A stretch of 64,000 nucleotides of DNA from a virus (Duplodnaviria; Caudoviricetes). The notes beneath the pieces were generated by a model. The model did not search any database, was not told the origin of the DNA, and saw nothing but the letters and a program-made list of their open reading frames with translations. Every line of letters starts with the position of its first letter. Position 1 is the first letter of the stretch. The DNA is taken from the IMG/VR virus record IMGVR_UViG_3300021400_000095. One strand, written 5' to 3'. Below are positions 11,640 through 60,744 of the stretch, piece after piece. The position numbers and the translations under genes were made by a program.

Positions 11640-12152
11640 TTAAGTGTTTTTTTTCCAAAACTTACTTGTTATGTCTTTCCACCCTTTCCTCACAACACCA
11701 TCAACTATGCAATACCATGAAAAATATTGTCCACCATAATACATTCTTTGATTTGTTGTTTCTTTATTAAGTGGTCCTGATGATTCAACATATGGCCCAA
11801 TTTTAAGATAATTCAAATTATCCCAATAAAAATCATCATCAATCTTTTCAGAACCAGAATAAAGCCCTATCTTTAAATTAGGATGTTTTTCTTTTATATA
11901 TAAAATTGCTTCTTTTAATGATTTTGGGTCATTTCCTTCACCCATAAAACAAAAACATGTAATTCCATCATTTTTTTCTATAAGGCTGTCTATGGCCTTA
12001 AAATTAAGTTCCTCACCAATATCTTTTCTTAAATATGGACTATGACAACCTTTACAATGATGTGGACAATTACTGATATTTACAGCCAATGTAATCTCAT
12101 CAGGAATCTCTGAAAAAACTACTGTTGTTTCTTCTTTAATATACTTAACCAT
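11640..12152 (-). CDS. nrdG: Anaerobic ribonucleotide reductase activase (radical SAM)
   Basis: CPHHCKGCHS CxxxCxxC; EIPDEITLA; near nrdD. Confidence 0.9.
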   Translation of the reverse strand: MVKYIKEETTVVFSEIPDEITLAVNISNCPHHCKGCHSPYLRKDIGEELNFKAIDSLIEKNDGITCFCFMGEGNDPKSLKEAILYIKEKHPNLKIGLYSGSEKIDDDFYWDNLNYLKIGPYVESSGPLNKETTNQRMYYGGQYFSWYCIVDGVVRKGWKDITSKFWKKNT

Positions 12153-13098
12153 TATTAATATTGTTTAGCAAAAACTCATGAAAAAATAAAGAACCATTCC
12201 TTGAAATATCCTTTAGAGATTCATTTGATATTGTCTTCATCTTAATCATTTCCTTATTAATATTAACTTTTAATCCATATCCAACAAATGCTTTATTAAT
12301 AAAATCAATGTCCTTGTTAGACAAATTATTGCACATATTATTAATTATTAAAAATGTCTGATATGATTCAGTTTTAATTAAACTTTCTTTATATAACTTT
12401 AACAAATAATCATATTTTGCTTCATTGGAAAACCTTTTTATTTTGTTCTTAATAATTTCTAATCTACTTTCAGGAAAAAGTTCCAACAATTGAGTATATG
12501 TGGATGACACTATTGATTGCCTTTCATGATAATAGCAAGCATACATTGCATATGCAAAATTCCTTATCAATTCATTTCTTTCATTCTCAATAATTGTTTT
12601 TATCCCACCATACCAAGATACAATATCAATATTTTTATCATTTGAAATCCTTTTGTTAAAAATGTTTCCATGCATTAATTCATGATTTACAATAGAAACA
12701 ATTTTATTAAAGATTTGTTTACTATCAAATGATAACCTATCAAACTGACTTAAATAAAGTGTGAACTCCAAATCTGTCAATATAATATCATCACCAATAA
12801 TATTACCTCTTGGCATTGTACTGGCATAGGTTTTCCCAACCAAATCTTTAGTTATCACTAAAACCAAATGTACAGGTATTTTTTCACCATCAATCTCAAT
12901 TTCAAAATCTCTTTTATGTTCATTGTTGTTTACCATATCAACAAATTCTTTAGTAATAGACTTTGCAACTTCTGGCTGTTTATTAAATGAACCAAGAGCC
13001 TCATTAACAAAAGAAATCTCCTTTTCAAAAACTTCCTTTATTAATATGTTTTTTATTTTGTTTTCATTAAAAAATGGTGGTACAATATAACTATTCAT
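12145..13098 (-). CDS. Zincin-like (HExxH) protein, paralog family member 1, inserted between nrdD and nrdG
   Basis: IVNHELMH plus downstream MY....HE motif shared with genes at 44241, 45080, 58876. Confidence 0.6.
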   Translation of the reverse strand: MNSYIVPPFFNENKIKNILIKEVFEKEISFVNEALGSFNKQPEVAKSITKEFVDMVNNNEHKRDFEIEIDGEKIPVHLVLVITKDLVGKTYASTMPRGNIIGDDIILTDLEFTLYLSQFDRLSFDSKQIFNKIVSIVNHELMHGNIFNKRISNDKNIDIVSWYGGIKTIIENERNELIRNFAYAMYACYYHERQSIVSSTYTQLLELFPESRLEIIKNKIKRFSNEAKYDYLLKLYKESLIKTESYQTFLIINNMCNNLSNKDIDFINKAFVGYGLKVNINKEMIKMKTISNESLKDISRNGSLFFHEFLLNNINNG

Positions 13099-15463
13099 TG
13101 TCAATATTGGTTATATCTGTGTATACTCTTGTCTTTTGCTCAATCTGTCTTCCATCTGACCAATTCTTAACCTTTGTTAAATAACCTATAATTCTATCCC
13201 AAAGGCTGACATTAGTACTTCCACAATGAGGGCATTTTTCAAATGGTTGTTTTGCAATAAAACCACAATTTTCACATTGGCAATTTGGAATGTTAAATGT
13301 TAGATATGAACATCCATTTTCAGCAGCATATTTTAGTATTTTCTCATATTGTGCTTTTGATAAGTGTGCATCAAGATTTAAATGTGCTGCACTACCACCA
13401 TCCAAATAATCACCAATATAGTTTTTGCCCATTAATCTAATCTTTTCAAAAACACTGAGATTTTCATTTGGTTTATAAACATAACTTGCATACAAATTAG
13501 TATCATTTGGAACCCAGTAACCATCTTCTTTATCCCAATTATAATTCTTTACTGCAAGTGATTCAGCAGGAACTTGTTCAGTATTAAAAGTAATTTTGTG
13601 CTTTTCATCTGTAACTTTATGTAAAGTATTTTGTTCCTTAATGTTACCAAAAATGTTTTGGCAGAATTTTGCATAAGCATCATTATCTGTACACTTTAAA
13701 CCAAGGAATTCTGCTGCTTGATTCAAACCATTTAAACCAATTGTTAAATACTGTTTGTTAAGGTCAATAAAACCAGCTTTATAAACAGGCAATAGGTTGG
13801 AATCATACATGTCCCATAATAGTTCATTATATGCAGTATGATATTTATAAACTCTTTCAAGAATTTTGTTTAAATATGATTTCAAACTACTATAATCTGA
13901 ATCAGAACCACTAAAAACAAAATCATTGTTCTTTTCCTTCCTTGAATTGAACCAATCCTGAGTAATTCTATTAAGATTTAATGTTATAACAGACTTAGAA
14001 CCTGTCTGTACACCAATATTACCATTAGTAAAGTTAAATTCTTTGGTTTGTATCTTGTTTTTTAATCTGCAACATGAACTGAGGCTGTCAACAGAATCAC
14101 TTATATAAGTAAAGAAACTATGACCTCTTGCATATTCCTCACAGACAAAATTAAACATTTCCTCATCTTCAAATTTTCCATCTTTATAAAGAAGTGTAAA
14201 AGATTCAACAGGGAATGTTAACAAACACTTAAGTCTTTCATTGTTAAACCACATCATGAACTCTTTTTCAACCCACTTAAGGCTTTCCCAATCAGGTTGT
14301 GTTCCATCAGGAAAATAGAAATTACCAAACATACCATCAAAGAATGGCTTATCAAAATAAGAAAAATTCACGAAGGCGGATTGATAACCCCTTGCTGCTG
14401 CTGGTTGAGAAATGGTATAAACAATTTGCTGCCAATATTGATGTATTTGTCCCTTTATTGTTCTTGTCCCATCACCAAATTTAAGTATATAGTTAGGGTC
14501 TTCTTTAATGTGTTCACAATAATCCTTTAATTCATCTTCAGTCAATGGTCTTTCACTTTCATAAACAAGTTCATCTCTTAATTTATTTAACTCATCACTA
14601 CCAAAATCATGTTCTGCAAGTTCTTTTACATTATTAGTCCAATAGTGTGATTCATTAAGTAACTTTCTTAGTTTATAACCAATTTTATAAAATGAATTTG
14701 ATTCTTTATAAAAATCATCACCCCATTCTTTCTTACAGAAATAGGTAAAATATAATAGAGATTCAGAAGTAGCAACAGCACCTGCAAATTGTGAAGAAAT
14801 TGCAAAAATAAGATTGCAATACATTCCACAATATGAATCAATATTCTTTGGTTCAGCAGAAAGACCACCAATGTTCTTAAGACCATTTGTTAAAAATGGA
14901 TACATTGTTAAAGAAACACAATATGGTGCAATTGCTCCAGCAAAAGAAGATTCATCATGTTTGTATATAATATGATTTTCCAAATCTTTTACATAATTCT
15001 TAGCATTAAAAGTAGGGTACAAATCTTTCAATTTACCCATTATCATTTTTCTGCTAATTTGAAGATTCTCTTCTTTGTGTATTTCAGCATTTAATACACC
15101 AATATTTTTGTTTGCAACATTTGAATTATCATCAATAGTTGCATTTGCTGTATTGGTTGCTTTCTTGTAATTATTAATAAAATTAATTTTTCTTTCTACA
15201 AAATTTTCAATCTCTTCTTTCTTGTTTTTTACTGACCTATATGCATTTAAAAGTCTATCATCTCTTTCACTAAACCTCTCTTCTAATTGCTTTCTAATTG
15301 AGGAACATAAAATGCCATCATATATATACAAACTATCAACAATTTCCTTTGCACATTCTGCATTACATTCAACACCAGCAGTATTAAAAACCTTTTTAAT
15401 AATATTTATCAACTTCCTTCTACTAAATTCCTCATAGGAGCCATCACTTTTTCTAACATCCAT
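13091..15463 (-). CDS. nrdD: Class III anaerobic ribonucleoside-triphosphate reductase with ATP cone
   Basis: N-terminal ATP cone VRKSDG; SSCCRL; CxxC..CxxC; RIIGYL glycyl-radical motif. Confidence 0.95.
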   Translation of the reverse strand: MDVRKSDGSYEEFSRRKLINIIKKVFNTAGVECNAECAKEIVDSLYIYDGILCSSIRKQLEERFSERDDRLLNAYRSVKNKKEEIENFVERKINFINNYKKATNTANATIDDNSNVANKNIGVLNAEIHKEENLQISRKMIMGKLKDLYPTFNAKNYVKDLENHIIYKHDESSFAGAIAPYCVSLTMYPFLTNGLKNIGGLSAEPKNIDSYCGMYCNLIFAISSQFAGAVATSESLLYFTYFCKKEWGDDFYKESNSFYKIGYKLRKLLNESHYWTNNVKELAEHDFGSDELNKLRDELVYESERPLTEDELKDYCEHIKEDPNYILKFGDGTRTIKGQIHQYWQQIVYTISQPAAARGYQSAFVNFSYFDKPFFDGMFGNFYFPDGTQPDWESLKWVEKEFMMWFNNERLKCLLTFPVESFTLLYKDGKFEDEEMFNFVCEEYARGHSFFTYISDSVDSLSSCCRLKNKIQTKEFNFTNGNIGVQTGSKSVITLNLNRITQDWFNSRKEKNNDFVFSGSDSDYSSLKSYLNKILERVYKYHTAYNELLWDMYDSNLLPVYKAGFIDLNKQYLTIGLNGLNQAAEFLGLKCTDNDAYAKFCQNIFGNIKEQNTLHKVTDEKHKITFNTEQVPAESLAVKNYNWDKEDGYWVPNDTNLYASYVYKPNENLSVFEKIRLMGKNYIGDYLDGGSAAHLNLDAHLSKAQYEKILKYAAENGCSYLTFNIPNCQCENCGFIAKQPFEKCPHCGSTNVSLWDRIIGYLTKVKNWSDGRQIEQKTRVYTDITNIDNE

Positions 15464-17954: not shown

Positions 17955-19148
17955 TTATTTTTTTATTTCTTTTTTATATCTTGCTATCTCTTTATTAGTA
18001 AGAGATTTAAATGGCTCAAAAAATCCTGAAAATTTATTTTCATCCAATAATTCTGTTAAATCATCTTCAACAATATATTGATATATGTTATTAAATGACC
18101 TTCCTTCAGGGTCTTGTACATTATACATGGTTGATTCTAGTTCTGCTTTTGCATAGTCACTGATGAGTGGATTTGATAAATCTATGATTTTTCTATTGAT
18201 TTCATAGAAATCACCATCATAATTCCCTTTTGTTACACCATTTACAATGTTTTCATGCCATTTTAATGGCTTTTTCTTTTGTGAAAGTCTTTCATCAACC
18301 TTTTCCTTAGCCCTTTGTCTAATTTCATTAATAGTAACAGGTCTTTTTTCAATTTCAGGTATTAGTTCATGTAATCTGTTCTGGCTGACACCTTCAATGT
18401 TCTTTATATTATCACTTGTATCACCACAAATAATTTTCTCAATCACAACATTTTCAACTGGAACACCTCTAATTTCTTGAATGTTATCCTTTGTTATAAA
18501 TTTCTTTATCATATGGTCATAAACACAAACAGTATCAGAAATTAATTGTGTAAGGTCATGGTCTGTTGACATTATGACAATTTTTTCTTCAGGTTTTTTA
18601 TTCTTTACATAATATGCAATATAGTCATCACCTTCAGTTGATTCCTCATCATCAAAAAACCATCTTATATATAATTCATTAAAATACTTTAAAAGCAAAT
18701 CCCTTTCCCTTGAAAAGTTTTCATCAATGAATTTTTGCAAATCTGATTTTTCCTTCTTTTTATTTTTTCCAAATAGATAATTTTGCATTGATTTTAACTT
18801 CTCTTCATATGCTTTCCCATATTCTGACAAATTTTCAAAATTCTCTATGAGTGAATAATTCTTATCCTCTCTATTTGCTTTATATCCATTATAAATCTTA
18901 TATCTTTTCAATCCAGAACAATGCCCATCAAAAAAAACATACACATAATCAAAACTTTTCTTCTGTAACATCATTCTAAGTTGCAAAAGAAATTGAAAAA
19001 CACCACCATAATGTTCACCTTTTGTATTAACTTTATCATCTTTCATTGAAAGTCTTAATAAATTATTGCCATCAACTAATAAAGTATAAATCTTGGTTTC
19101 TGTGATGTTATGTGCTTCCTTAACTATTTTCTTAATTGGTTGTGCCAT
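17955..19148 (-). CDS. 5'-3' exonuclease / T4 RNase H-like (FEN family)
   Basis: LLVDGNNL, YKANR, EGDD, STDHDL, GDTSDNI; starts MAQPI. Confidence 0.9.
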   Translation of the reverse strand: MAQPIKKIVKEAHNITETKIYTLLVDGNNLLRLSMKDDKVNTKGEHYGGVFQFLLQLRMMLQKKSFDYVYVFFDGHCSGLKRYKIYNGYKANREDKNYSLIENFENLSEYGKAYEEKLKSMQNYLFGKNKKKEKSDLQKFIDENFSRERDLLLKYFNELYIRWFFDDEESTEGDDYIAYYVKNKKPEEKIVIMSTDHDLTQLISDTVCVYDHMIKKFITKDNIQEIRGVPVENVVIEKIICGDTSDNIKNIEGVSQNRLHELIPEIEKRPVTINEIRQRAKEKVDERLSQKKKPLKWHENIVNGVTKGNYDGDFYEINRKIIDLSNPLISDYAKAELESTMYNVQDPEGRSFNNIYQYIVEDDLTELLDENKFSGFFEPFKSLTNKEIARYKKEIKK

Positions 19149-19163
19149 ATTCAATTATTTTTA

Positions 19164-19202
19164 CAAATATACAAAAATAATGGCTTTTTACCAACTATTT
19201 AT
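19164..19202. promoter_or_regulatory. Divergent promoter pair: TATATTTG (- strand) and ACTATTTAT (+ strand)
   Basis: Both motifs seen directly; a similar cassette is at 62378-62417. Confidence 0.6.
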
Positions 19203-19218
19203 TAAAAAATGTGTATTT

Positions 19219-19953
19219 ATGGAATTTTTATTTGGTACAGCAACACCTGACACAATAAAAGTGCAGAAAAAAAATTCAGACCAATATCTTTATAATGTAT
19301 CATGTGATTCACCAGAAGGTAAACCAAAACCATTTATTTATGGCTATGATACCAATGGTAATAAAAGGGTATGGCTTGGAAAAGCCTGTCAATACCATTA
19401 TGCATTATGCAATGAATATAAGGAAATGGTCACTCAACTTATTGATGGAAGACTTTGGGAGAATTTAAAAATTATGTCAATTTGGGACCTTAATAAAGGT
19501 TTTGTACAAAAAAATATTAAAGGTTGTTTAACTGATTTAGAACAAAGATACAAAATCAATTTGTCAGATTATTCACTACTATATAACACAAGTAAGGATG
19601 TTGTCAAAAAAATAAGCATTGATGAATTTCTTGGTAGAGAACATCAGTCTTCTGATGCTTCTGATACATCATATGAAAGAGAACTTCACTTAATGTCACC
19701 AACTCAAAAACAACAGGAACTACAAACCAATGATGAATATAAAAAAAGAAGAGAAGCCTATGCAAAAGCATCTCAAAATGCTTGGATTTCCAAACATGGT
19801 AACATTGACCCTGCTTATTATCACTTACTTATGTATCAGGAAGGAAAAAACAAAAAACTTACCATAACAGAATCTGATATTAAAAAAATGGTAAAAGAAT
19901 GTATAAGAAGAATTAAAAATAAAAAAAATGAGAATGAGTCAACTACACACTAA
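19219..19953 (+). CDS. Hypothetical protein with C-terminal ITESDIKKMVKE tag
   Basis: ATG 19219 follows ACTATTTAT; ends at a convergent terminator. Confidence 0.7.
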   Translation: MEFLFGTATPDTIKVQKKNSDQYLYNVSCDSPEGKPKPFIYGYDTNGNKRVWLGKACQYHYALCNEYKEMVTQLIDGRLWENLKIMSIWDLNKGFVQKNIKGCLTDLEQRYKINLSDYSLLYNTSKDVVKKISIDEFLGREHQSSDASDTSYERELHLMSPTQKQQELQTNDEYKKRREAYAKASQNAWISKHGNIDPAYYHLLMYQEGKNKKLTITESDIKKMVKECIRRIKNKKNENESTTH

Positions 19954-20060: not shown

Positions 20061-21128
20061 TTATTCAATGTCTTTTATCCAACCTGAATCAAAATTATCA
20101 CAATAAAAATTAATTGTTTTTCTAATTCCTTCTTCAAAAGTTACCTTTTGTTTCCATCCCATTGATTCAAGTTTTGAACAATCAATTGCATATCTTAAAT
20201 CATGTCCCTTTCTGTCTTCAACATATGTTATTAATGATTTATATTTTTTAATCCACATTGGTTCAGGGTTGACAATGTATTTTTTATTATCATTCAATTG
20301 TCTTTGATGTGCAAATATTTCAATAATAGTGTTTATCATGTCAATGTTGCTCATTTCATGATTTCCACCAACATTGTATGTTTCACCAGCAACACCATTA
20401 TGAAAAATAAAATCAATTGCACTACAATGGTCTTCAACATATAGCCAATCTCTAATATTTTCACCCTTTCCATAAACAGGAATTGGCTTTTCACCCATAA
20501 GATTAAATAAGACCACAGGTATTAATTTTTCAGGATACTGATATGGCCCATAATTATTTGAACAATTTGATATTGTAGTATTCATACCATATGTATCATG
20601 AAATGCTTTTACAAAATGGTCTGAACTTGCCTTACTTGCTGAATATGGTGAATGTGGGTCATATTTTGTATTTTCTGTAAACTTTTCTTTACTATCCAAT
20701 TCCAATGAACCATATACTTCATCAGTTGAAACATGATGGAATCTATGCCCCTTCAATGTACCAAACTTTTTTTCCCAATAATTCATTGCTATATTTAACA
20801 AACAATGTGTTCCATGAACATTTGTCCATTCAAATACATAAGGGTCAAGAATACTTCTATCAACATGACTTTCAGCAGCAAGATGAATAACATCTGTAAT
20901 CTCATATTTTTCAAAAGTTTCTTTTAACTTTTTATCATCACAAATATCACCCTTAATAAAAACATAGTTTTCTAAATTCTCAATATCTTTAAGATTATTT
21001 GGATTACCTGCATATGTCAATTTGTCATAATTCACAATCTTATATTCAGGATATTTTCTCAGTAAGTAATGAATTAAATTACTACCAATAAATCCACAAC
21101 CACCTGTTACTAAAATATTTTTCTTCAT
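20061..21128 (-). CDS. rfbB: dTDP-glucose 4,6-dehydratase
   Basis: GGCGFIGSN, HLAAESHVDRSI, STDEVYG, YSASK, DRKGHDLRYAID. Confidence 0.95.
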   Translation of the reverse strand: MKKNILVTGGCGFIGSNLIHYLLRKYPEYKIVNYDKLTYAGNPNNLKDIENLENYVFIKGDICDDKKLKETFEKYEITDVIHLAAESHVDRSILDPYVFEWTNVHGTHCLLNIAMNYWEKKFGTLKGHRFHHVSTDEVYGSLELDSKEKFTENTKYDPHSPYSASKASSDHFVKAFHDTYGMNTTISNCSNNYGPYQYPEKLIPVVLFNLMGEKPIPVYGKGENIRDWLYVEDHCSAIDFIFHNGVAGETYNVGGNHEMSNIDMINTIIEIFAHQRQLNDNKKYIVNPEPMWIKKYKSLITYVEDRKGHDLRYAIDCSKLESMGWKQKVTFEEGIRKTINFYCDNFDSGWIKDIE

Positions 21129-21176: not shown

Positions 21177-22379
21177 TTACATTTCATCCTCTTCAGTTTC
21201 AGTAAAGACAATATCATCCTTTTCAGAAACAACTACATTTTCATTGTTGCTCTTGCTAATATTATTTAACTGCTTAAGAATATCAGCAACATGTTCTTTT
21301 CTATATGCATCAACTACATCTTTTTCAGTACTAATCATACCATGTGGTGTACAAATAATATCACCTTCATATGTCACTGTATAAGGATTTGGTAATTGAT
21401 TCTTCATGACCTTAATTTTGGTTTGAATTGCATAATTATAACTTAAACCCTTGGATTGTGCTGTCAATTTCTTAATTGATGATTTTAATTGCCCACCAAG
21501 AAGAATAATTAACCTTGATGCATAGAATATTGAATTTCCACCCTTTAACTGAATGCTTGGAGGTCCAACAGGATTTGTCATTGAATCAAGCCATACTTTA
21601 TTAACTAAAATCATTGTATTTGAATATGGTGATGACACTTTTCTTGACCTTGGAATTCTATCATTAACAATCCCATTAAAGGCAACACTAATTGCAGCAG
21701 CATCCCACATTGCATTGGATGATTTTGAATTATAACTCTTAAAACTTGAAATACTTCCAACAGAATCCCATAAGAAAACAAAACCAGCATCAACTTCACC
21801 ATTATCTTGTGCATCAAGTAACTCATTTATTGAATATGCAATGTCTTCAATAACTGCAATTTTTCTTCCCTTTGCAGTTTCCTTACCTGTTGAATAGTCA
21901 TTTTTCCCATATCTTTCAGCAAGAAGAGCATTATTGAAGTAAATGAAATTACCATCATAAGCCACAATACCATTTTCTTTTACAATTTCAACTTCACCAG
22001 TTTCTTCATTAACTTTTTCAACATCAATATCACCATATATTGGTGTTGCTTCCATTCCCATGTCAATTGCATATTTAAAATCAAAATTGTTTTCTGTATC
22101 ATAAATAACAGGAATATAACCTTGTCTTTGTGCAGCAACAATTGCATGATTTATTAATGTTGATTTTCCTGTATTTGAATGACCAATAATTGTTGTAACA
22201 TATGAAATTGGAATACCAGGAAGTCTTAGACTTTCCTTATATGCATCAGGCATTTCAAGCCATTCCATTGGCTTATCTGCATTACTTGATTCCTTAGTTG
22301 CAACAAGACCCATCTTTGCCTTAAATTCAGATATTGTTGGCTTTTTCTTTATCTCTTTCTTTTTTAATGGTTGTGCCAT
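21177..22379 (-). CDS. RecA/UvsX-like recombinase
   Basis: GHSNTGKS Walker A, YDTEN, FLWDSVG, KGGNSIFYAS, KVMKN. Confidence 0.88.
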   Translation of the reverse strand: MAQPLKKKEIKKKPTISEFKAKMGLVATKESSNADKPMEWLEMPDAYKESLRLPGIPISYVTTIIGHSNTGKSTLINHAIVAAQRQGYIPVIYDTENNFDFKYAIDMGMEATPIYGDIDVEKVNEETGEVEIVKENGIVAYDGNFIYFNNALLAERYGKNDYSTGKETAKGRKIAVIEDIAYSINELLDAQDNGEVDAGFVFLWDSVGSISSFKSYNSKSSNAMWDAAAISVAFNGIVNDRIPRSRKVSSPYSNTMILVNKVWLDSMTNPVGPPSIQLKGGNSIFYASRLIILLGGQLKSSIKKLTAQSKGLSYNYAIQTKIKVMKNQLPNPYTVTYEGDIICTPHGMISTEKDVVDAYRKEHVADILKQLNNISKSNNENVVVSEKDDIVFTETEEDEM

Positions 22380-22397: not shown

Positions 22398-23177
22398 TTA
22401 TTTATTTAAATATTCTTGTTCAATTTCACACACAATTTCAATTGCAGATGGTGGAATATTATCATATGTGTATATACAATCAAAAGCATTTGGGTCATAT
22501 GAAAAATTTACATCCTTAATTTCTTCTGTGTCAATTGCTAATAATATATATGTCCCATTATATGGCATTATCTTTTTATTTTTTGCTTCCTCAGCATGAA
22601 ACTGTTGCATCAAACATAAACAATCATCCATATATGGTTCATGAAGGAAAAAATAAACTCTATCAGGATATTTAAATTTTTTATTATCTGTTCTTGGTGT
22701 AAGACCATTTTTTAAAATCTTATCCACTTTAGAGGTTTTAGTTAAATGATATATATATTCTTCATCTTGAACCAATTCATTAATCTTATTTTGATGTCTT
22801 GGTTCATAAAAAATATATAACATTTTTCCATCATTAGTTACATTTTTAGTTGATGGAAAATACCCACACAATGCCATGTCTTTATCAACAACACTTTCAT
22901 TTTCTTTGTCATTATAAATGCCAATTCTAAAAACATTAACTTCATTATCATTTTCAAAACAATCAATATATGCATATTTACCATATCTTTTCTTAAGATA
23001 TTTTTCAACCTTATCAACAGGATATGTTGCATAATATCCTTCCATTAATGGATTGCTTTTTAATTCATCAGGTAATGAAAATGGGTTAGTTAATGATTCA
23101 TTTAAATGAAAAATCACACTATTAACCATTTTTTCAATGTCATTTTCTGTTAGCTTGATTTTTAATGGTTGTGCCAT
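22398..23177 (-). CDS. ADP-ribosyltransferase-fold (KptA/Tpt1-like) protein with N-terminal tag
   Basis: IYHLT....DKILKNGLTPR...DRVYF...LLAID...NIPPSAI; N-terminus MAQPLKIKLTENDIEKMV. Confidence 0.6.
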   Translation of the reverse strand: MAQPLKIKLTENDIEKMVNSVIFHLNESLTNPFSLPDELKSNPLMEGYYATYPVDKVEKYLKKRYGKYAYIDCFENDNEVNVFRIGIYNDKENESVVDKDMALCGYFPSTKNVTNDGKMLYIFYEPRHQNKINELVQDEEYIYHLTKTSKVDKILKNGLTPRTDNKKFKYPDRVYFFLHEPYMDDCLCLMQQFHAEEAKNKKIMPYNGTYILLAIDTEEIKDVNFSYDPNAFDCIYTYDNIPPSAIEIVCEIEQEYLNK

Positions 23178-42720: not shown

Positions 42721-42729
42721 ACTATTTAT
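42721..42729 (+). promoter_or_regulatory. Putative late promoter ACTATTTAT for tail tube gene
   Basis: Recurrent motif. Confidence 0.6.
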
Positions 42730-44240: not shown

Positions 44241-45047
44241 TTATCTCCAACCTTGTTTTAACTTATCTTTTTTAACTTTTATAATAGTTCTACCAATTCT
44301 ATGTAAAAAATTGTTTAACTGTTTTTCAATATATGGCATTGTTATTCCATATAAATTAAAATAATCAGTAAACACTTCTTTTAAACCATCATTAATTTTT
44401 AACTCATTAAAATTTTCTTTTGCTGTTAAATACAAATTCCATGTTTCTGAAGAAGTTAATAAATCATCATTATATGGTTCTTGTTTATCCATCATATATG
44501 CATATAATCCATTTGAAAAACCTTCTTGTTCAGACTTTATACACAAATATAATAATTTGGCCAATTTTTGTTTATTTTCACTTTTTGATTCCAAATCAGT
44601 TTTTATTTTTTCATATAACCCATTTGAATCACCAAATTCATGCCCCATCTTTTCTTGTTGAAAAATGTGTTCCACTTTATGTTGTATTGTTTCCATGGAT
44701 TTTGGTTTATCAACTGTTCCATTTATTGCATAGATGTTAATAAACATCATGGCAAGTCCTTTATTTATAAAAATAGAACCACCATCTGTTATATAGGACA
44801 AATTATATTTTTCCTTAAAATCTTTACTTAAAAAATTCCTATATATTACAGAACTAACAATTTTTATCTTATCAATATAAGAAACAATGGAAATCTTTTT
44901 TTTTATTAACAAGTTATTTTTTTCTATAATTTCAGCATTGTTTAATTTACTAATAATTTCATTATAAAACTCATTAGAAAACCTTGCAACATCATCATTT
45001 ATACTCAATTCTTCTTCTATGATTTTTTTTATTTCTTCAGTTAACAT
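44241..45047 (-). CDS. Zincin-like paralog 2 (HKxxH variant)
   Basis: TIQHKVEH; LLYLCIKSEQ; N-terminus MLTEEIKKIIEEEL. Confidence 0.6.
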   Translation of the reverse strand: MLTEEIKKIIEEELSINDDVARFSNEFYNEIISKLNNAEIIEKNNLLIKKKISIVSYIDKIKIVSSVIYRNFLSKDFKEKYNLSYITDGGSIFINKGLAMMFINIYAINGTVDKPKSMETIQHKVEHIFQQEKMGHEFGDSNGLYEKIKTDLESKSENKQKLAKLLYLCIKSEQEGFSNGLYAYMMDKQEPYNDDLLTSSETWNLYLTAKENFNELKINDGLKEVFTDYFNLYGITMPYIEKQLNNFLHRIGRTIIKVKKDKLKQGWR

Positions 45048-45079: not shown

Positions 45080-45955
45080 TTATAATCCATTTTGCCTTAA
45101 AATCTCTTTGAATTTCCAATCTCTTTCCTTTTCTCTTTCTTCTTCCATTTTTATTGTATATAATGAATATGCCATACCAACTTTTCTAATTAAATATTTG
45201 AAGCCATTCTTTGAAACTGTTTGGAAATACTTTTTAGTTTTATCAAAGTTTTCATAATTCTTAATTATATTATGATTAATTAAATACCAACATGCAGTAA
45301 TGAACAATGTATTTTGACTATTATATTTGCTAATATTGTCATATGAATTCTTTAATGTTGAATATAAATCTGATATGAGATTATCATAAATGAAATCTTT
45401 ATATGTTTTATATTCTTTTTTCTTTTTTATAGCAGAAGCATATGCCCCATTAACAAATGAATTTATCTCATTTTTATTGCAATAATATAATATCTTGCAT
45501 AAATAAGCAACTATTGGGTTATTATTACTCATCCCTTTTATAATATCCTGATATCTGTCAGTAGAAATTGGTTTGTTTTTCATTTTACATTCCCAATAAT
45601 GACTACATTCATGTTGGATTGTGTCTGTTAAATCATAATAATCTATTTCATTCCCAAATTGCAAAACTGTTAAATATAAAGTATTTTCTTCAAATGAATA
45701 TCCATTATTCCTATGTGTTTTTGAATACCATACATAGAATTCATCAGTGCTGTTAAAATATTTAAACATAAAATCAACATATAAATCAGACATTTCTGTT
45801 GCTACCCTAAACTTTTTTTCTTTTATGTTTTTCTCCAATAAAGTATATATGTCCTTTTCAATTATGTTTGTTAATTTAACAACCTCTTTTGCAATACCTA
45901 AATCTTCATTCATTAGATATCTAACCTGTTCCTCTGTTAATATTACTTTTTTCAT
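45080..45955 (-). CDS. Zincin-like paralog 3 (HExxH)
   Basis: TIQHECSH; ILYYCNKNE; N-terminus MKKVILTEEQVRYLMNE. Confidence 0.6.
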   Translation of the reverse strand: MKKVILTEEQVRYLMNEDLGIAKEVVKLTNIIEKDIYTLLEKNIKEKKFRVATEMSDLYVDFMFKYFNSTDEFYVWYSKTHRNNGYSFEENTLYLTVLQFGNEIDYYDLTDTIQHECSHYWECKMKNKPISTDRYQDIIKGMSNNNPIVAYLCKILYYCNKNEINSFVNGAYASAIKKKKEYKTYKDFIYDNLISDLYSTLKNSYDNISKYNSQNTLFITACWYLINHNIIKNYENFDKTKKYFQTVSKNGFKYLIRKVGMAYSLYTIKMEEEREKERDWKFKEILRQNGL

Positions 45956-46077
45956 ACATATATAATTAATATATCTTTTTAATAAATGTCAAGTTTGTTA
46001 ACTTAATAACAATAAAAAAAAAGCATAGAAATATTTTTCATATCCCTATGCTTTTTAAAATTTTATTTAATTTGTTG

Positions 46078-48834
46078 TTATTCGTTGAAAGACACACTTT
46101 CAGGGTAGACAACAAATGTTATGCTAATATATTCAAGTGCAGGTGTAGGTTTAACAAGGATTTTTGCTGGAAGGATGTGTTGGTCTCTTGTTTCAGGTGT
46201 TGATTCAGTTTGAATTCTATAATCAACAATACCTCTATTAGACTTAACATCAGCAAGAATTGGTTCTACAAGTGACTTAAATTGTTTTTCAAGGGTTGCA
46301 TCATATTGTTCAAAGATAAGATGTTTAGAAGCCTCAACAACAAGTTTCTTAATTCTAAGCATAAGTCTTCTAACATTAATTCTATTAAGAGGGCTTTCCT
46401 TATCATATAATGTCTTATTACCCCAAACTTTAACACCATCTTGTGCAAATGTCTTGATAGGATTAACTCTATTTTCATAAAGTGTATCTTCATCAGAAAG
46501 AGTTGTCTTAATATCAGCCTTAATACAATCAATATTACCTCTTTCAGTACCAGCAGGTGCAAACCATGGGAATGAGTTATTATCTGTTGCAGCCATATTT
46601 CTAACAACATCCTTTGTTACAGGAAGTGTAAGATATCTCTTAGCAGAATTATCATAATATTTAATCCATGGCCAGTATGTACAAGCATAAGAAGATACAA
46701 TATCACTATCATTAACTGCTTCAGCAATTAAATCTGCTGTTTTAACTTCATTAACATCCATTGGTGAGTTAATGATATAAAGTGCATCACCACCTCTACC
46801 ATCCTCAGGGTCTTCAATCATATCAAGAGCATCTTCTACAAGAAGTGTGTGATGGAAGTAATCAATACCAGGAGTTGCAAACAAGTTAATATAAGAATCT
46901 TGTGGATTTGCAAATTGCATATAACCTGCAAGATATGCATAATAGTCACTTGTAATTGCATTTACTGGAAGATTAAGGTCAAGAGTTGGGTCAAGTACTA
47001 ACTCAGATGAATTAACATAATCAAATGGGCAACCTGAAACAATTGCATATTTAGATGCCTTATATTTATCTGTATTAGTTCTTTCAGCCCTATAAATATC
47101 CCAACCATCAAAGCCACCATATGGATAAACAGTGAACTTTCTTAAGTTAATGTCTTCATAAATTGTTCCCTCAGTCTGAGCCTCAGTAATAAGTCTTGGA
47201 AGTTTCTTTGATTGTGCAGCAGCTTGAAGTCCATCAACTGTTGTAAATGAATAACCAGATTCACTATCAACAAAAATCTTACTATTCATCAAGACATTTG
47301 TTCCAGAAACACTATTGTTATTTGGCATTGAAAGAATTGCATCAAGGTGGAAACCCTTAGTAAGTTTATCAGGGTCAGCATCACCCTTTCCATTTGCATA
47401 TGCAGTTACACCATTATAGTTAAGAACATCAACATCAAGGATATCTCTATTCAAGCCAAAATATTGTCTCTTAGGTTTAATGAAATCATTGAATTCAGTG
47501 TTATATGCAACATCAATTCTTTCACCACCATACTTAGGCATTGGATAACCTAAGAAACCACAAGGAACACAAGATTCAACACCATCTTCCTCTGAAATTT
47601 CAACTGTGATGTATTTTGATTTAGCAACATAGCCACCATCAAAAGTACCAATCTTAGCACCAATATAGTTATTAGTACCAGGCATCATTGAACAATTGGT
47701 GAATTTTTCAAGTACAACAGGTGATACATCACTATCATTGAAGTCTCTTACCCAAACATCAAATAAACCCTCATCAGGTCTGATTCTTTGAATAGAAATC
47801 TTAACTTGTCTATTAGCAGCATCACCATCAGAAATTGTATATACCTTGAAAAGTTTCTTAACATTGATTGCTTCATTAGTTGCTTCTTTAACCTCTGATA
47901 CAATCCAAGGGGTTTGTGCACATCTATATGTTTCTTTATAGTTTACATAATTTTCATTACCACTTGATTCAAGACCTGCTGTTGCAATATCTTCAAATTT
48001 AATTGTTTTATTTTCATTTTCAGGCCTTCTAAGTAAGTCTTGATATGCATAGTCATATAATGCTTCAATATAAACAGGTGCTGAACCTACAAGTGGGTCA
48101 GTGCTGAATACATTGTAAATATATGACCTATCAGTAGGATTAATTGAAACATTGTAACTTGTCTCAGTTGAAGCACTTACAATATTACCATTTTCATCTT
48201 CACTATACTTATTATATGTAATTTTAAGGCCAAACTTACCAAGTTCTACTTTACCATCATTTGAAACAGCAGTTCCACCACTAATTTTACCACTGAGTGG
48301 AATATTTGCTGATACACCACTAATCACACAGTTTGCATCATATGTGGCACTACTATAAGGAACAAGTTGTACTTTAGTAACAATAGGATTGAATGCTTCT
48401 TGTTGTGCTTTTTCACATTCACCACCATTAACATTAGCATAATAATTAGCCTTTGACCTAAGAATTACAAGTGGGTACTTTTTACTATCAATATTAGCAT
48501 AAACACCAAACACTTTACTATTTTCATAACCAGAGATACCAAGAACCCTAACAACATTAAGATTCTTTGATTCCTTCAAGTATTCTTTAGCAACATATGG
48601 AAGTTCATATTTAGGGAGGTCATTACCCTTATACTTTTCAGGTGATGTACCACCAAAGTAGTCTACAAAGTCAGCCCAATCAGTTACAGGTATTGCTTGA
48701 AATGCAGGTCCTTTAAGTGTTTCACCAACAAGACCAAGGCTAGTAATACCTAAGCTTTTAGCTGAGTAAAGAACATCTTTCTCTTCAGTATAAACACCTG
48801 GTGAAACATGACCACCTCTTGCATCACTTATCAT
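46078..48834 (-). CDS. Tail sheath protein
   Basis: VSPGVYTEEKD, LVGETLKGPAF, WFAPAG..RG, LY..RVNPI, GVKVWGNKTL, RINVRRL. Confidence 0.95.
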   Translation of the reverse strand: MISDARGGHVSPGVYTEEKDVLYSAKSLGITSLGLVGETLKGPAFQAIPVTDWADFVDYFGGTSPEKYKGNDLPKYELPYVAKEYLKESKNLNVVRVLGISGYENSKVFGVYANIDSKKYPLVILRSKANYYANVNGGECEKAQQEAFNPIVTKVQLVPYSSATYDANCVISGVSANIPLSGKISGGTAVSNDGKVELGKFGLKITYNKYSEDENGNIVSASTETSYNVSINPTDRSYIYNVFSTDPLVGSAPVYIEALYDYAYQDLLRRPENENKTIKFEDIATAGLESSGNENYVNYKETYRCAQTPWIVSEVKEATNEAINVKKLFKVYTISDGDAANRQVKISIQRIRPDEGLFDVWVRDFNDSDVSPVVLEKFTNCSMMPGTNNYIGAKIGTFDGGYVAKSKYITVEISEEDGVESCVPCGFLGYPMPKYGGERIDVAYNTEFNDFIKPKRQYFGLNRDILDVDVLNYNGVTAYANGKGDADPDKLTKGFHLDAILSMPNNNSVSGTNVLMNSKIFVDSESGYSFTTVDGLQAAAQSKKLPRLITEAQTEGTIYEDINLRKFTVYPYGGFDGWDIYRAERTNTDKYKASKYAIVSGCPFDYVNSSELVLDPTLDLNLPVNAITSDYYAYLAGYMQFANPQDSYINLFATPGIDYFHHTLLVEDALDMIEDPEDGRGGDALYIINSPMDVNEVKTADLIAEAVNDSDIVSSYACTYWPWIKYYDNSAKRYLTLPVTKDVVRNMAATDNNSFPWFAPAGTERGNIDCIKADIKTTLSDEDTLYENRVNPIKTFAQDGVKVWGNKTLYDKESPLNRINVRRLMLRIKKLVVEASKHLIFEQYDATLEKQFKSLVEPILADVKSNRGIVDYRIQTESTPETRDQHILPAKILVKPTPALEYISITFVVYPESVSFNE

Positions 48835-48878: not shown

Positions 48879-48887
48879 ATAAATAGT
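48879..48887 (-). promoter_or_regulatory. Putative late promoter ACTATTTAT for sheath gene
   Basis: Recurrent motif. Confidence 0.6.
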
Positions 48888-50641: not shown

Positions 50642-51307
50642 TTAATAATAAGTTTCATAAACATTATCATTCAAGCCAAAATCAATAAGCACCAAATTAT
50701 CTTGACCATTTTCTTTAACAAGTCCCCAACTTGAAATTCTTTTCAAATCACCAACAGATTTAAGTTGATAATTTCCAAGATAGTCTTGCAACATATAAAA
50801 GATGGAATAATCATAATTATCTTGAAACTCTTCACTGTTGAATAATTCATCAAATTTTCTATTTCTATAACTTCTATTAGTATAAGAACTTACACAATAG
50901 TCAATCCAAGCACAAATTACTTCAAAACTATAACCAAAAATTCTTTTAAAGTCTGAAATTTTAGGTCTTCTTGCAAGTTCCATTTCAATCCACTGATAAT
51001 TTTCATCAACATCAAACACCTTAGCAAAACAGCCAATTTGTTGGAGATAATAATCTGCTTCTACTTCATTTTGAGCAAGTCCTTTCCTATTTTTAGCAAG
51101 TTTAAGAACCTTTTCTTCATCTATTTTATAAACAATTCTTGCAGAACCTGAAGATATTCTTTGTAATCTTTGTTCACAATATTGTATTCTTCCATTGAAT
51201 GTAGTGATTTTCTTAAACTCATCCATCTTGAAAAAAGTTGGATAAGCCATTTCACCAATTAAAACTTTATATTGATTTTCTGTAATTATAACTCTCTTGT
51301 TTTCCAT
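50642..51307 (-). CDS. Protein kinase-like enzyme with N-terminal tag
   Basis: SSGSARIVY Gly-loop, VLK, QNEVE, GDL catalytic Asp, LIDFG; N-terminus RVIITENQYKVL; ACTATTTAT at 51336-51344. Confidence 0.7.
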   Translation of the reverse strand: MENKRVIITENQYKVLIGEMAYPTFFKMDEFKKITTFNGRIQYCEQRLQRISSGSARIVYKIDEEKVLKLAKNRKGLAQNEVEADYYLQQIGCFAKVFDVDENYQWIEMELARRPKISDFKRIFGYSFEVICAWIDYCVSSYTNRSYRNRKFDELFNSEEFQDNYDYSIFYMLQDYLGNYQLKSVGDLKRISSWGLVKENGQDNLVLIDFGLNDNVYETYY

Positions 51308-51484
51308 CTTTCTTTAATTACTAGTAATATATACTATAAATAGTTTTTCTTTTAAAGAAATAATATTCTAGTTAATAAATATATTTTATTAAATATTATA
51401 TATATAATATATTATATATTATTAAATATATATTTGTTTTTTATTAATAAAATTTATATATTTGTAATAGTTAATATTTTAATT

Positions 51485-56932: not shown

Positions 56933-57865
56933 ATGAAGGGAATTATATTAGCTGGAGGTGCAGGAACAAGACTTCACCCAATTACAAAAGGAATCAGCAA
57001 GCAGCTACTTCCAATTTATGATAAACCTATGATTTATTACCCTCTGTCAATCCTTATGCTTGCTGATATAAAAGATATTCTTATCATTACAACACCTGAA
57101 GAACAATCAATGTTCAAGAGATTGCTTGGTAATGGTTCAGATTTTGGCATTAATCTCCAATATGCTGTTCAGGAAAAACCAAATGGTTTGGCTGAAGCAT
57201 TTATTATTGGTGAAGAATTCATTGGTGATGATGCTGTTTGTTTAATATTGGGTGATAATATTTTCCATGGTTCAAATATAAGTGTAAAGTTGAATTTGGC
57301 AAGAACCATTGTTGAAGATACTAAAAATGCAAGAGCAGTTGTCTTTGGTTATCAAGTATCTGACCCTGAAAGATATGGTGTTGCTGAAGTGACTAAGACT
57401 GATGTTGAATTTCCAAACAATTTATATTGTGTAAAATCACTTGAAGAAAAACCAAAGAATCCAAAATCAAATATTGCAGTAACAGGATTATACTTCTATC
57501 CAAATTCTGTTGTTAATGTAGCAAAAAATATTAAACCATCAGCAAGAGGTGAACTTGAAATTACTGAAGTAAATAATGTATATAATAATATGATTGCAAA
57601 TGATGGTGGAACAATGCTTGACCTTATTATGTTTGATAGGGGTTATGCTTGGCTTGACACTGGAACTTTTGATAGTCTATCAGATGCATCAAATTACATT
57701 GAAACAATTCAGAAAAGACAAGGTTTAAAAGTTGCTTGTTTGGAAGAAATTGCATATAATAAAGGATGGATTAGTAAACAACAACTTTTGGAAGCAGGTG
57801 AAAAATTAAAGAAAAATGATTATGGAAAATATCTATTGAATCTTATAAATAAAGCCATAGACTAA
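56933..57865 (+). CDS. rfbA: Glucose-1-phosphate thymidylyltransferase
   Basis: [49 protein letters not shown]. Confidence 0.96.
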
Positions 57866-57876: not shown

Positions 57877-57884
57877 TTAGTTTA

Positions 57885-58733
57885 CTAATACATTGCACTA
57901 TACAATAGCATACAGGCATCTTGTTTATAGAGTACCATTGGGTCACTTTGCCTTCTTGGTGCATTATTTGGCCTATATTTATTATCAAAATAATCAAATT
58001 TTAGTTTTTGTGCATCATTATTAGAAAATAAATAATGCATGCCATCATGTGATTGATATTTCATTTCAGGTTTTATACCATTTTTTTCAAGATAATCTTC
58101 AAGTTCCTTTTGTGCTTTTTCATCATCAATATCACAATCAATTAATCCCCAAGGTCTAACCTTTGTCCATTTAACATTTACATCATCTGCTGTCATTTGT
58201 CTACCTGCTGCAAATTGAAATTCTCTATTCTTTTCCATCCCTCTTTGTTTTAATGAATTAGCATATGCATTGGTTTGATTCATGGACCTTTTATTAATTG
58301 TCATATAACATCTTGCATTAAATCTGTTACATAAGAATATAACAGCAGAAATATCTCTTGGTGAATCAATTGTTTTTACAATTCTGCCTTTATTTGAAAC
58401 AGCATTTTGGAAAGATGGGTTAACATTCATTTGGATATGTTTCAATGATTCAATTGCTTCTTCTTTGGTATTACCTGATACAATTCCATAAGCAACAAAA
58501 TTTACACTAAAATTTCTACTACCATCACCTGAATGGTTCTTATGAAAACTATTAAGATTGTCCTTCTTTCTCTGAGATATATAAACATACCAAAAATCAT
58601 CAGGTGAAGTCCACTGTCTATTAATAAGTTCAATGGCTGTATCCAACTGATATACTTCATTTACATGTCCTTCAAGTATTTTACTAATACTTTCAGAAAT
58701 TATATTTTTTAAATGTTCTTGACTTAACAACAT
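57885..58733 (-). CDS. AEP (primase-polymerase superfamily)-like protein with N-terminal tag
   Basis: LIDCDIDD (DxD) and SHDGMH motifs; QRKKDN, NARCY; ACTATTTAT at 58754-58762. Confidence 0.5.
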   Translation of the reverse strand: MLLSQEHLKNIISESISKILEGHVNEVYQLDTAIELINRQWTSPDDFWYVYISQRKKDNLNSFHKNHSGDGSRNFSVNFVAYGIVSGNTKEEAIESLKHIQMNVNPSFQNAVSNKGRIVKTIDSPRDISAVIFLCNRFNARCYMTINKRSMNQTNAYANSLKQRGMEKNREFQFAAGRQMTADDVNVKWTKVRPWGLIDCDIDDEKAQKELEDYLEKNGIKPEMKYQSHDGMHYLFSNNDAQKLKFDYFDNKYRPNNAPRRQSDPMVLYKQDACMLLYSAMY

Positions 58734-58738: not shown

Positions 58739-58768
58739 TTGTTATATTTATTAATAAATAGTTATAAA

Positions 58769-58927
58769 ATGGGAAGAAAAAAACAAAAGTTTCAAATTGA
58801 TGAAAATGGTAAGTATTATAAAATTGTTAATGGTGAAAAAAAATACTATGAACCATTAAAACTTGTTGATTTTTTTTATGATGATGTAAAAATAGATTCT
58901 TTTTCAGAAAAAAATAAGAATGAATAA
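58769..58927 (+). CDS. Small hypothetical protein
   Basis: ATG 58769 after TATTTAT; overlaps the 3' end of the convergent gene. Confidence 0.4.
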   Translation: MGRKKQKFQIDENGKYYKIVNGEKKYYEPLKLVDFFYDDVKIDSFSEKNKNE

Positions 58928-59670
58928 TTTATTAATATGAAATAAACTTTTCTTTTTTTTTCTTTCATATATAAATAATATATGTTCCCAATTTTAGCAT
59001 TGTATTTTTTATATTTCTTTTTATAATAATCTAATGTTAATCCACTTTCTGTTTTTAATATTTTTTTATTTTCCTCATTAGATTCAAAAAATTCTAATAA
59101 TTTTGCAATTTGTTTTAATTTGGTTATATTTTCATAATGTGTTAAATCTTTAATGTTTTTCTCTTTGGTTAAAAAGTAACCAAACTGTGAACATCTTGCA
59201 TTACATTCAGTATCTCTTAAATAATATAACAATTTCCTTAATAAAATATAAACCATATCAGTGGAAGATGAAATTAATATATTTTTTATTCCACCTTCAT
59301 TGTCATTAATAAAATGTGTTAATTCATGTATTATAAAAGAAATTGTTGTATTTTTATCATAATTATAAAAATAATTGTAGTTTACAATAATATGTTTGTC
59401 TTTATATTCCATATTACCATCAGTTAAATTATCACCAACAACAATAAATAAATCAGATGAATTATTATATGGATAATATTTTAAGATTGTTTTATTTGAT
59501 ATTTTGTAACTAAAATTGTAAACCTCTTTTTTTATTTTTATATCAATTAAATTGTAAATATATTCTGCTAATGGAAAAAGTTTTTCATTCAATATATGCA
59601 TTTTTTCTAATAGTATTTTACTAATACTTTCAGAAATTATATTTTTTAAATGTTCTTGACTTAATAACAT
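58876..59670 (-). CDS. Zincin-like paralog 4 (HExxH)
   Basis: IIHELTH; LLYYLRDTE. Confidence 0.6.
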   Translation of the reverse strand: MLLSQEHLKNIISESISKILLEKMHILNEKLFPLAEYIYNLIDIKIKKEVYNFSYKISNKTILKYYPYNNSSDLFIVVGDNLTDGNMEYKDKHIIVNYNYFYNYDKNTTISFIIHELTHFINDNEGGIKNILISSSTDMVYILLRKLLYYLRDTECNARCSQFGYFLTKEKNIKDLTHYENITKLKQIAKLLEFFESNEENKKILKTESGLTLDYYKKKYKKYNAKIGNIYYLYMKEKKRKVYFILINYSFLFFSEKESIFTSS

Positions 59671-59675
59671 ATTCT
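59612..59675. repeat. 64-bp direct repeat copy 2
   Basis: 63/64 identical to 58675-58738. Confidence 0.9.
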
Positions 59676-60744
59676 ATTCACCAATTAGTTCAGGAATATC
59701 ATTAATTGTACAATCTTGTGGGCAACCATCAGAATCATATACCATATATTGCCCATCTTCATATACAATCATTAAATAATATTCACCATATTTTACATTT
59801 ACAAATAAATTACCTGCTGCATCTTTTTGCCAATTTTCACCATCATCAAACCATACATTTGAAATAGGTGTATTTGAATTTGATGGAACATAATTCATTT
59901 TACCTTGTTTATTCCAAACAATAACATAGCCATTAATTGCTTTATCTGAAACATCTTTGAAGTCCCTATTTCCACCAAATTGGAAATGAGTATCAACCTC
60001 ATTGTTAATCCTATCAATTAATTCTTGATTAAGCCTTGTTTGCCAAGTTTTTCCATTGTCATTTGAAATTGCAACAGGAACAACTGATGAGAAATCTCTA
60101 ATAAAACAACATGCACCATCATGACCACCATTATAAACAATTCCTCTACATCTTGTTTTGTTCATACCTGATTCACCAAGTAATCTAATAATTTCATGTG
60201 CAGGAATTGATGATTTTCTCATGTTACCAAAACTTGCCCTATCATCATGCATTACAAGATTAACTGAAGATAAAATTTTTTTTGCAATATCATCTGGAAA
60301 AATATCAACAACCTGTTGTTTAATATGCCATCTATTACCATATGTTTGTTTTGCAAGTTGCTCAGAAAATATAAGGAAATCCTGATATCCACCAAGTAAC
60401 TTAAGTTTTATAATAGATGTACCATATCCAGTTGCTTTTTCATTACTTGATTTTAAATTATATACAGAATATACACCTGCACCATACATGTTTCCACCAT
60501 TTGAATTAGTAAATTCCCTACTAAAACCATATGTGAATAATGAATCTATAACAGACATCTTTTTACCACCAACAGTCACAATAGCATCTTTTGGCCTATG
60601 GTAAAGTGTAATACCATTCATTATATCTTTGTATGTAATACCATTTTCTCTGACATTAAATTTTTCATTAATATCAGAGAAATCCATATTACTAAATGTT
60701 TCTTTTACAATGTTTTTAACATCTGTTTCTGTTAATATCATCAT
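59674..60744 (-). CDS. PARP-like ADP-ribosyltransferase-fold protein with N-terminal tag
   Basis: TLYHR...GF...GNMYGAGVYS...YG..IIK; N-terminus MMILTETDVKNIVKE. Confidence 0.55.
   Translation of the reverse strand: MMILTETDVKNIVKETFSNMDFSDINEKFNVRENGITYKDIMNGITLYHRPKDAIVTVGGKKMSVIDSLFTYGFSREFTNSNGGNMYGAGVYSVYNLKSSNEKATGYGTSIIKLKLLGGYQDFLIFSEQLAKQTYGNRWHIKQQVVDIFPDDIAKKILSSVNLVMHDDRASFGNMRKSSIPAHEIIRLLGESGMNKTRCRGIVYNGGHDGACCFIRDFSSVVPVAISNDNGKTWQTRLNQELIDRINNEVDTHFQFGGNRDFKDVSDKAINGYVIVWNKQGKMNYVPSNSNTPISNVWFDDGENWQKDAAGNLFVNVKYGEYYLMIVYEDGQYMVYDSDGCPQDCTINDIPELIGE

Follow-up and report, generated by a model that had tools for sequence, protein, structure and literature searches.

A putative capsid-targeting and processing tag on unrelated proteins of uncultured T4-like huge phages

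The stretch of viral DNA analysed here, a window of 64,000 nucleotides (nt) from IMG/VR record IMGVR_UViG_3300021400_000095, reads as a portion of a large T4-like myophage genome, and several of its otherwise unrelated proteins carry a related short amphipathic peptide, mostly at the N-terminus. This tag is real and specific. On balance, the best explanation is that a clade of uncultured T4-like huge phages uses it as a portable tag for capsid targeting and processing, which would serve for loading into the head and then be removed by proteolysis. The tagged enzymes are probably injected with the DNA, since the tag resembles an enlarged form of the T4 load-and-cut signal. In the proposed mechanism, tagged proteins would be made late, alongside virion proteins, and the tag helix would dock in the prohead scaffolding core, probably by mimicking the N-terminal helix of the scaffold protein. 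A gp21-type prohead protease would then release the cargo inside the head by cutting behind the tag's Glu residues, and at the next infection the cargo would leave the head along with the DNA and act in the new cell before any phage gene expression.

A specific tag on otherwise unrelated proteins

An earlier note on this DNA had listed nine proteins as unrelated carriers of a common amphipathic segment, with coordinates that are the stop ends of minus-strand open reading frames (ORFs), the peptides themselves being N-termini at the high-coordinate end; genes are named here by the same low coordinate. A regular expression derived from these peptides, and thus post hoc, was run on the 56 genes of the window (20.2 k residues) and found seven matches, six within the first 12 residues and one C-terminal, compared with 0.2 matches in total and 0.007 N-terminal ones in shuffled proteins. 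Because the expression was post hoc, a separate hidden Markov model (HMM) was built from relatives' tags only (34 tags from two related complete genomes, G001 of 363 kb and G002 of 401 kb) and scanned over the six frames of the window, with reversed sequence as decoy. Six window segments exceeded the best decoy (9.0 bits), namely the C-terminus of 19219-19953 (24.3 bits) and the leaders of 59674 (15.0), 22398 (14.1), 57885 (13.0), 58876 (12.8) and 50642 (11.3). The claim of a common segment on unrelated genes is thereby borne out for six of the nine. Of the remainder, 45080 (5.5 bits) and 44241 (6.0 bits) scored below the best decoy and are paralogs of each other with a variant leader, and so not unrelated, while the tag proposed for 12145, whose ortholog is untagged, is not supported (2.6 bits in a separate profile scan).

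Over all profile scans, decoy maxima were 5.4-9.0 bits versus up to 41.8 bits for real tags, nearly all of which lie at residues 1-10. Building a profile of the tag and scanning relatives with it, as the earlier note had proposed, thus found it specific. Chance among Lys/Glu-rich helices, or paralogy of whole proteins, might be suspected in an AT-rich genome with proteins rich in K, E, I and N, of which 44241 and 45080 are paralogs. However, neither shuffles nor reversed decoys ever reach the observed scores, which refutes this explanation for the six instances; the matches occur almost only at termini, and the cargo bodies are dissimilar and differ in fold. BLAST similarity between the tagged window proteins is likewise limited to the tag, except in the pair 44241/45080. 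Overall, we regard this explanation as scarcely credible.

The alignment of 63 instances from the window, G001, G002 and other loci defines a tag unit of 24 residues, with hydrophobic residues at positions 5, 10 and 13 (100%), 14 (97%), 18 (89%), 21 (78%) and 22 (83%) and Glu at positions 7 (89%), 16 (79%) and 24 (71%). The helix is amphipathic, the unit contains hydrophobic-x-Glu three times, and from position 25, directly past the last Glu, conservation is lost. In the relatives the consensus is ..IRLTESDLHKIIKESVNKVLKE, compared with which the window tags are shorter and more diverged. In both AlphaFold models (22398 and 57885), the tag forms a separate helix before the folded domain, and in that of 22398 a disordered linker separates it from the core. 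A secretion or membrane signal was set aside, the tag being highly charged and without a hydrophobic core.

Codons at the conserved tag positions are diverse (TTA, CTA, CTT, CTG and TTG for Leu; GAA and GAG for Glu), and an identical residue has an identical codon in only 49% of cases. Because these codons vary freely, selection is, to judge from the sequences, on the peptide and not on the DNA. The sole copy at the DNA level is shared by 57885 and 58876, whose leaders differ at a single nucleotide over the 66 nt that extend from -5 to codon 20, between unrelated flanks; this leader duplication is recent. A nucleic-acid element, that is, a translation-start or recombination cassette that moves from gene to gene and yields the peptide only incidentally, would account for this near-identity, including the 5 nt before the ATG, and for the "MNKK" start kept in internal metagenomic copies, as if whole cassettes had been fused. 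Nevertheless, the diverse codons largely refute it, and C-terminal or internal copies cannot serve translation initiation, so that it is very improbable.

Putative cleavage sites, head genes and a late-type motif

The window has a GC content of 28% and encodes structural proteins (a 918-aa tail sheath, tail tube, baseplate wedge, baseplate hub and a tape-measure-like protein) as well as replication proteins (a DnaB-type helicase, a UvsX-like recombinase, NrdD and a DNA polymerase fragment); no head genes lie within its 64,000 nt. It has no close DNA match in the phage collection, its 1060-aa tape-measure-like protein gave no tblastn match, and IMG/VR scans with the single proteins 59674 and 45080 found no relatives. 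The head genes were considered in G001, which is the IMG/VR record behind locus L007, in G002 and in three partial relatives.

Peptidase_S77 is encoded in four of these five related records, and the G001 protease is 34% identical to T4 gp21 (1e-26), with NHP and GVSSRGLGS conserved. In the gp23-type capsid protein of G001, KMMLSE/ASDAS is aligned with T4 SFLTE/AEIGG at the end of the T4 propeptide, which comprises 65 residues of gp23 (PMC9026906). The L/I-x-E specificity of the protease is probably kept in the relatives, because the G001 propeptide ends in L-S-E/A where that of T4 has L-T-E/A. The terminus of the tag matches this cleavage motif through its hydrophobic position 22 and its Glu at position 24. 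The T4 capsid-targeting sequence (CTS) is MKTYQEFIAE (PMC8442874), in which residues 4 and 7 act in targeting and residues 8 and 10 in processing (PMC9026906). These mapped residues give h-x-x-h-h-x-E (h, hydrophobic), and tag positions 10-16 and 18-24 follow this same pattern.

The head module of G001 lies on one strand and contains, in this order, genes for the portal, a tagged 377-aa protein, TerL, the capsid, an acidic scaffold-like protein, a tagged HExxH protein, the protease, an internally tagged protein and a tagged ArdA (PF07275, 3e-30). The HExxH gene, G001_258791-259603, located between the protease and scaffold genes, is the ortholog of 44241 (35% identity, 7.5e-42) and bears a clear tag of 17 bits. 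The ArdA gene at G001 263402-264160 (L032:3402-4160, minus strand) belongs to the head operon, as the second gene upstream of that for the prohead protease, and its product is a candidate virion-delivered DNA mimic. Moreover, hhalign aligns tag columns 6-25 with the helix at the N-terminus of the scaffold-like protein (P 3.3e-5) at a score of 23.6, whereas 100 column shuffles gave 8.1 on average and at most 12.9; this likeness is suggestive only. In T4, the scaffold protein gp22 starts with MLKEQLIAEA, close to the T4 CTS.

A promoter-like motif, ACTATTTAT, had been said to precede several tagged genes as well as the sheath, tube and baseplate genes, and this was found to be so, with 12 matches in the window versus 2.6 expected. 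For nine of the 12, a start codon follows at a distance of 24-52 nt. Among the virion genes it precedes the tail sheath gene 46078-48834, taken as a reference (motif at 48879..48887, minus strand), the tail tube gene 42769-43257 (42721..42729, plus strand; phrog_4542, 2e-28) and the baseplate wedge gene 1175-1564 (1583..1591, minus strand), and it also precedes two small genes. Five tagged genes of the window belong to units with this late-type motif: 50642 (51336..51344, minus strand), 57885 (58754..58762, minus strand), 59674 and 58876, which follow 60716-62359 as the first gene of their unit (62378..62386, minus strand), and the C-terminally tagged 19219 (19194..19202, plus strand). No copy precedes the replication genes of the window. 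In G001, the motif CTATTTAT is found upstream of the sheath, the tube and the first head-operon gene and is enriched before tagged genes (5/18 versus 29/424, p 0.008), as is the variant ATATTTAT in G002 (9/19 versus 52/433, p 0.0003).

These results bear on two further explanations. The tag might be a virion address other than the head core, such as the tail lumen, baseplate or neck, and might not be removed; this would suit the position of the window's tagged genes amid the sheath, tube, tape measure and baseplate genes and the late motif common to tagged and tail genes. It is nonetheless improbable, as the h-x-E motifs fit a head protease acting inside proheads, the tagged genes of G001 lie in the head module, and about 20 different small enzymes are unlikely as fixed tail parts. 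The main rival is that the helix serves for docking or oligomerisation in general, with a common partner in the infected cell (a phage hub, a chaperone, a host target or, in a coiled coil, another copy of itself) and without relation to the capsid. The isolated amphipathic helix with its linker to the cargo in both models, the N-terminal, internal and C-terminal positions with several copies per protein, and the orthologs that do without the tag could all be expected of such a helix. It would, however, leave unexplained the three Glu in h-x-E register with conservation ending exactly past the last, the association with the virion-gene promoter motif, the tagged genes within the head operon and the likeness to the scaffold N-terminus, and we consider it unlikely.

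Loading into the head and co-injection of host-modifying enzymes, as the earlier note had proposed, is thus supported in part: the T4-type protease of the relatives, the L-x-E/A propeptide, the h-x-x-h-h-x-E units, the late motif, the head-gene neighbourhood and the type of cargo all agree with it. Several findings weigh against it. The late motif is absent for 22398, which lies in the tdk-recombinase cluster, and no clear late motif was found for 45080-44241, located between two terminator-like hairpins. Some orthologs lack the tag, mainly the fused PARP-AEP forms of 575-616 aa, and proteins with internal or C-terminal tags, or with 2-4 tags each, are found as well, which is unexpected under a simple N-terminal T4 model. 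The head protease and capsid are known from relatives only, whose PARP-like protein is 28-63% identical to that of the window. If cargo bodies must survive the head protease, [LI]-x-E should be depleted in them, whereas 51 were observed versus 46 expected. In addition, the cargo is acidic, unlike the basic internal proteins of T4, and the likeness to the scaffold is short (20 columns, hhalign probability 72%).

Spread of the tag and comparison with known systems

Each complete relative encodes about 20 tagged proteins, roughly 4% of its ORFs, and the three partial relatives encode 5-18. The tag profile gave 14 matches in a distant uncultured 484-kb phage, but the T4 genome (at E<=10) and a cultured T4-like phage of Flavobacterium gave no match, nor did a tblastn search of cultured phages with a 40-aa tag. 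Neither a cultured relative nor a proteome of virions was found. In a set of 1.84 billion cluster representatives, the profile matched at least 7,623 with E<=1e-3, of which 385 reached E<=1e-10; among the best 150 cluster matches, an N-terminal copy is present in 133, and 105 hold at least two copies. Many of the metagenomic proteins (P0159-P0308) consist of tandem tag-cargo units with 2-4 tags, and the "MNKK" start is often kept in internal copies. This arrangement suggests in-frame fusions of cassettes, which could be cut apart at the tags. Tags are also gained and lost within orthologous families, as in those of 59674 and 19219.

No Pfam family occurs on more than one, and no PHROG on more than two, of 46 tagged proteins from relatives and related loci, and the tag therefore appears to be unmodelled in these databases. 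Pfam and PHROGs likewise gave nothing useful on the tagged proteins of the window. No description of this tag was found among the listed papers that use the term "capsid targeting sequence", and the passages of the Jug-phage paper (PMC12880540) that matched the search do not mention it. The tagged cargo of the relatives includes ArdA, an S-AdoMet lyase and an InPase domain, the last of which elsewhere forms part of giant proteins (DarB-like, "minor head protein" and "virion structural protein"). ArdA and the S-AdoMet lyase are useful at DNA entry, and such proteins, if made late, would fit delivery in the particle, for which T4 Alt and IPI* are precedents (PMC9026906, PMC3012670).

We slightly favour the view that the tag system corresponds to that of the T4 CTS in expanded form, without homology between the two. 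As in T4, a short terminal peptide is attached to otherwise unrelated, fast-evolving proteins, shows the h-x-x-h-h-x-E pattern and a terminal gp21-type L/I-x-E site, and is accompanied by T4-type portal, protease, scaffold and gp23 genes (here from relatives) and by cargo that includes an ADP-ribosyltransferase and anti-restriction proteins. T4 Alt itself starts with MELITE and is processed at both ends (PMC9026906). In contrast to T4, the tag has no sequence homology to MKTYQEFIAE beyond the residue pattern, comprises 24 residues with three Glu sites instead of 10 residues with one, and is found on about 20 proteins per genome compared with four. It also differs in occurring C-terminally, internally and in tandem, its cargo is acidic and rich in enzymes, packaging is predicted here, and the hosts are probably Bacteroidota.

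Ejection or inner-body proteins of phiKZ, 201phi2-1 and SPN3US are also processed by a gp21-like prohead protease (PMC5694885, PMC7411985, PMC10052503). Like the phages considered here, these are giant myophages with many head-loaded proteins, propeptides cut after Glu and proteins ejected into the host. Cleavage of phiKZ-like propeptides occurs at S/A/G-x-E, and we know of no single tag common to them, whereas here one stereotyped tag with hydrophobic-x-E is reused. Short terminal helices are enough for loading the HK97-fold shell in the case of encapsulin cargo-loading peptides and of the coat-binding helices of P22 scaffolding protein. The present tag is similarly a short terminal helix for loading arbitrary cargo; however, those peptides bind the shell protein directly and stay on, while the likely receptor here is the scaffold core and the tag contains protease motifs.

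A further point of comparison is given by the polyvalent proteins of phages and conjugative elements, reportedly described by Iyer et al. in 2017. Their domains overlap with those of the tagged cargo (ART, HExxH peptidase-like, primase-like and InPase), and the logic of delivering anti-defence enzymes with the DNA is the same. Packaged anti-restriction proteins of the DarB type are known from the P1 virion (PMC9024508), and one tagged G001 protein matches a segment of the DarB-like, "minor head protein" and "virion structural protein" PHROGs. Unlike polyvalent proteins, the window cargo consists of separate genes of 221-356 aa with their own tags instead of one giant polypeptide, and in the relatives only two-domain fusions (PARP-like and AEP-like, 575-616 aa) are found.

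A broader reading, to which we give a little less than an even chance, is that a scaffold-mimicking, protease-removable tandem tag constitutes a general loading code in huge phages of gut and rumen Bacteroidota. It would bring about 20 enzymes and anti-defence proteins into each head as an injected first wave, among them ADP-ribosyltransferases acting on nucleic acids, a kinase, a primase-like enzyme, ArdA and an S-AdoMet lyase. Such a set would resemble polyvalent proteins split into exchangeable tag-cargo cassettes, which may also be joined in tandem and separated again inside the head. If the tag indeed serves for head loading, uncultured phages of gut and rumen that form a large and abundant group would deliver a varied protein payload with their DNA, and the early infection and counter-defence of such phages would have to be read differently from their genomes. 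The tag would then provide a simple sequence rule for candidate injected effectors in metagenomes (the at least 7,623 matching clusters) and a means of equipping such phages with foreign proteins, in the manner of the T4 CTS. Moreover, the principle of the T4 CTS would be old and greatly expanded outside the T-even phages.

Tagged cargo and neighbouring genes of the window

The fold labels of the earlier note fared differently: the ART fold was supported by Foldseek, the PARP-like, kinase and AEP-like labels are leads of varying strength, and "protease" refers to an HExxH motif only. The ART-fold cargo is encoded by 22398..23177 (minus strand), with the N-terminal tag KIKLTENDIEKMVNSVIFHLNE at 23085..23162 (minus strand). 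Its AF2 model (pLDDT 79.5) has the tag helix at residues 11-19, the disordered linker at 27-47 and the core at 50-259, and Foldseek matched it to Tpt1/KptA (E 8e-5) and DarT1 (E 3e-3) with probability 1.0. The family profile gave weak matches to the Tpt1/KptA and DarT families, and H144, T146, R173 and Y175 are invariant or nearly so. An ADP-ribosyltransferase fold with a predicted NAD-binding core, of the Tpt1/KptA-DarT clade, is thus supported by the model. Among its orthologs the tag is variable, with the terminus h-x-E/S kept.

Four unrelated genes of the window, at 19137-19148, 22368-22379, 23166-23177 and 41336-41347 (minus strand), open with the same 12 nt, ATGGCACAACCA, their proteins starting with MAQP[IL][KR]. 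These are exonuclease-like, UvsX-like, tagged ART-like and HNH-like genes, and the MAQPLK start is also present in ART-like orthologs elsewhere.

The gene 57885-58733 carries the tag MLLSQEHLKNIISESISKILE at 58671..58733 (minus strand), and its product is, with weaker support, AEP/primase-like. Its model (pLDDT 88.7) was matched by VIA, at middling Z, to the RepB' primase (Z 7.1), the S-2L PrimPol (Z 5.9) and PriS (Z 5.3), all full-length VIA matches being AEPs; Foldseek found no match for this model. D199, D201, H233 and D272 (DxD, His and Asp) are invariant in the family. All 30 of 30 orthologs have a tag whose terminal [LI]-x-E lies directly before a conserved HV[DN]E[IV]Y, the remaining tag being variable. 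The PARP-like gene 59674-60744, tagged with MMILTETDVKNIVKE at 60661..60744 (minus strand), has 86 homologs, of which most carry the tag and some do not. PF00644 was found on two family members at 1e-5 and PARP10 at E 0.26; the PARP-like label also has weaker support. PARP-like and AEP-like proteins are fused in one ORF of 575-616 aa, mostly untagged, in L002, L003, L008 and L009 (e.g. L009:9953-11680).

Between 59674 and 57885, and only in the window, lies the HExxH gene 58876-59670, whose tag at 59602..59670 (minus strand) is the copy of the 57885 leader; no relatives of 58876 were detectable. Family searches did not support an ArdC-like identity of 60716-62359. The gene 50642-51307, with the tag KRVIITENQYKVLIGEM at 51218..51298 (minus strand), appears kinase-like, again more weakly, from GSARIVYK, DLK and DFG in its sequence, a profile match to the SteC kinase (E 0.0096) and an Atlas lead of 0.93-0.94.

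The HExxH protein 45080-45955 has the variant leader KKVILTEEQVRYLMNEDLGIAKE at 45884..45952 (minus strand), which reaches 24.7 bits with an HMM that includes window seeds, and its H-x-x-x-H paralog 44241-45047 (BLAST E 2e-7) has the degenerate leader MLTEEIKKIIEEELSI at 44976..45047 (minus strand; 4.5-6.0 bits). Their family conserves the leader ..ILTEEQ..KL.NEELGIS.EV and an invariant H115/H119 (H-x-x-x-H). The profile of this zincin-like family has no match in the PDB, and the label "protease" therefore refers to the HExxH motif alone. The unit 45080-44241, directly downstream of the sheath gene, is flanked by the terminator-like hairpins 46018-46056 and 44231-44258 (minus strand), which have 17 and 10 pairs and T runs. 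The HExxH gene 12145..13104 (minus strand), for which a tag is not supported, has as its ortholog the untagged G001_166632-167582.

On the plus strand, 19219-19953 bears the C-terminal tag KKLTITESDIKKMVKECIRRI at 19852..19935. The tag is an add-on in the window, because the G001 ortholog stops directly before the tag position. The exonuclease-like gene starting at 19148 (minus strand) diverges from 19219 across a 70-nt region within 19148-19219 that contains ACTATTTAT; a longer ORF called from 19093 probably does not have a real start. As for other parts of the window, 1719-11617, 20061-21128 and 56933-57865 contain many sugar-nucleotide and glycosyltransferase genes, including Glf-like, RmlA-like and epimerase/dehydratase genes and several glycosyltransferases.

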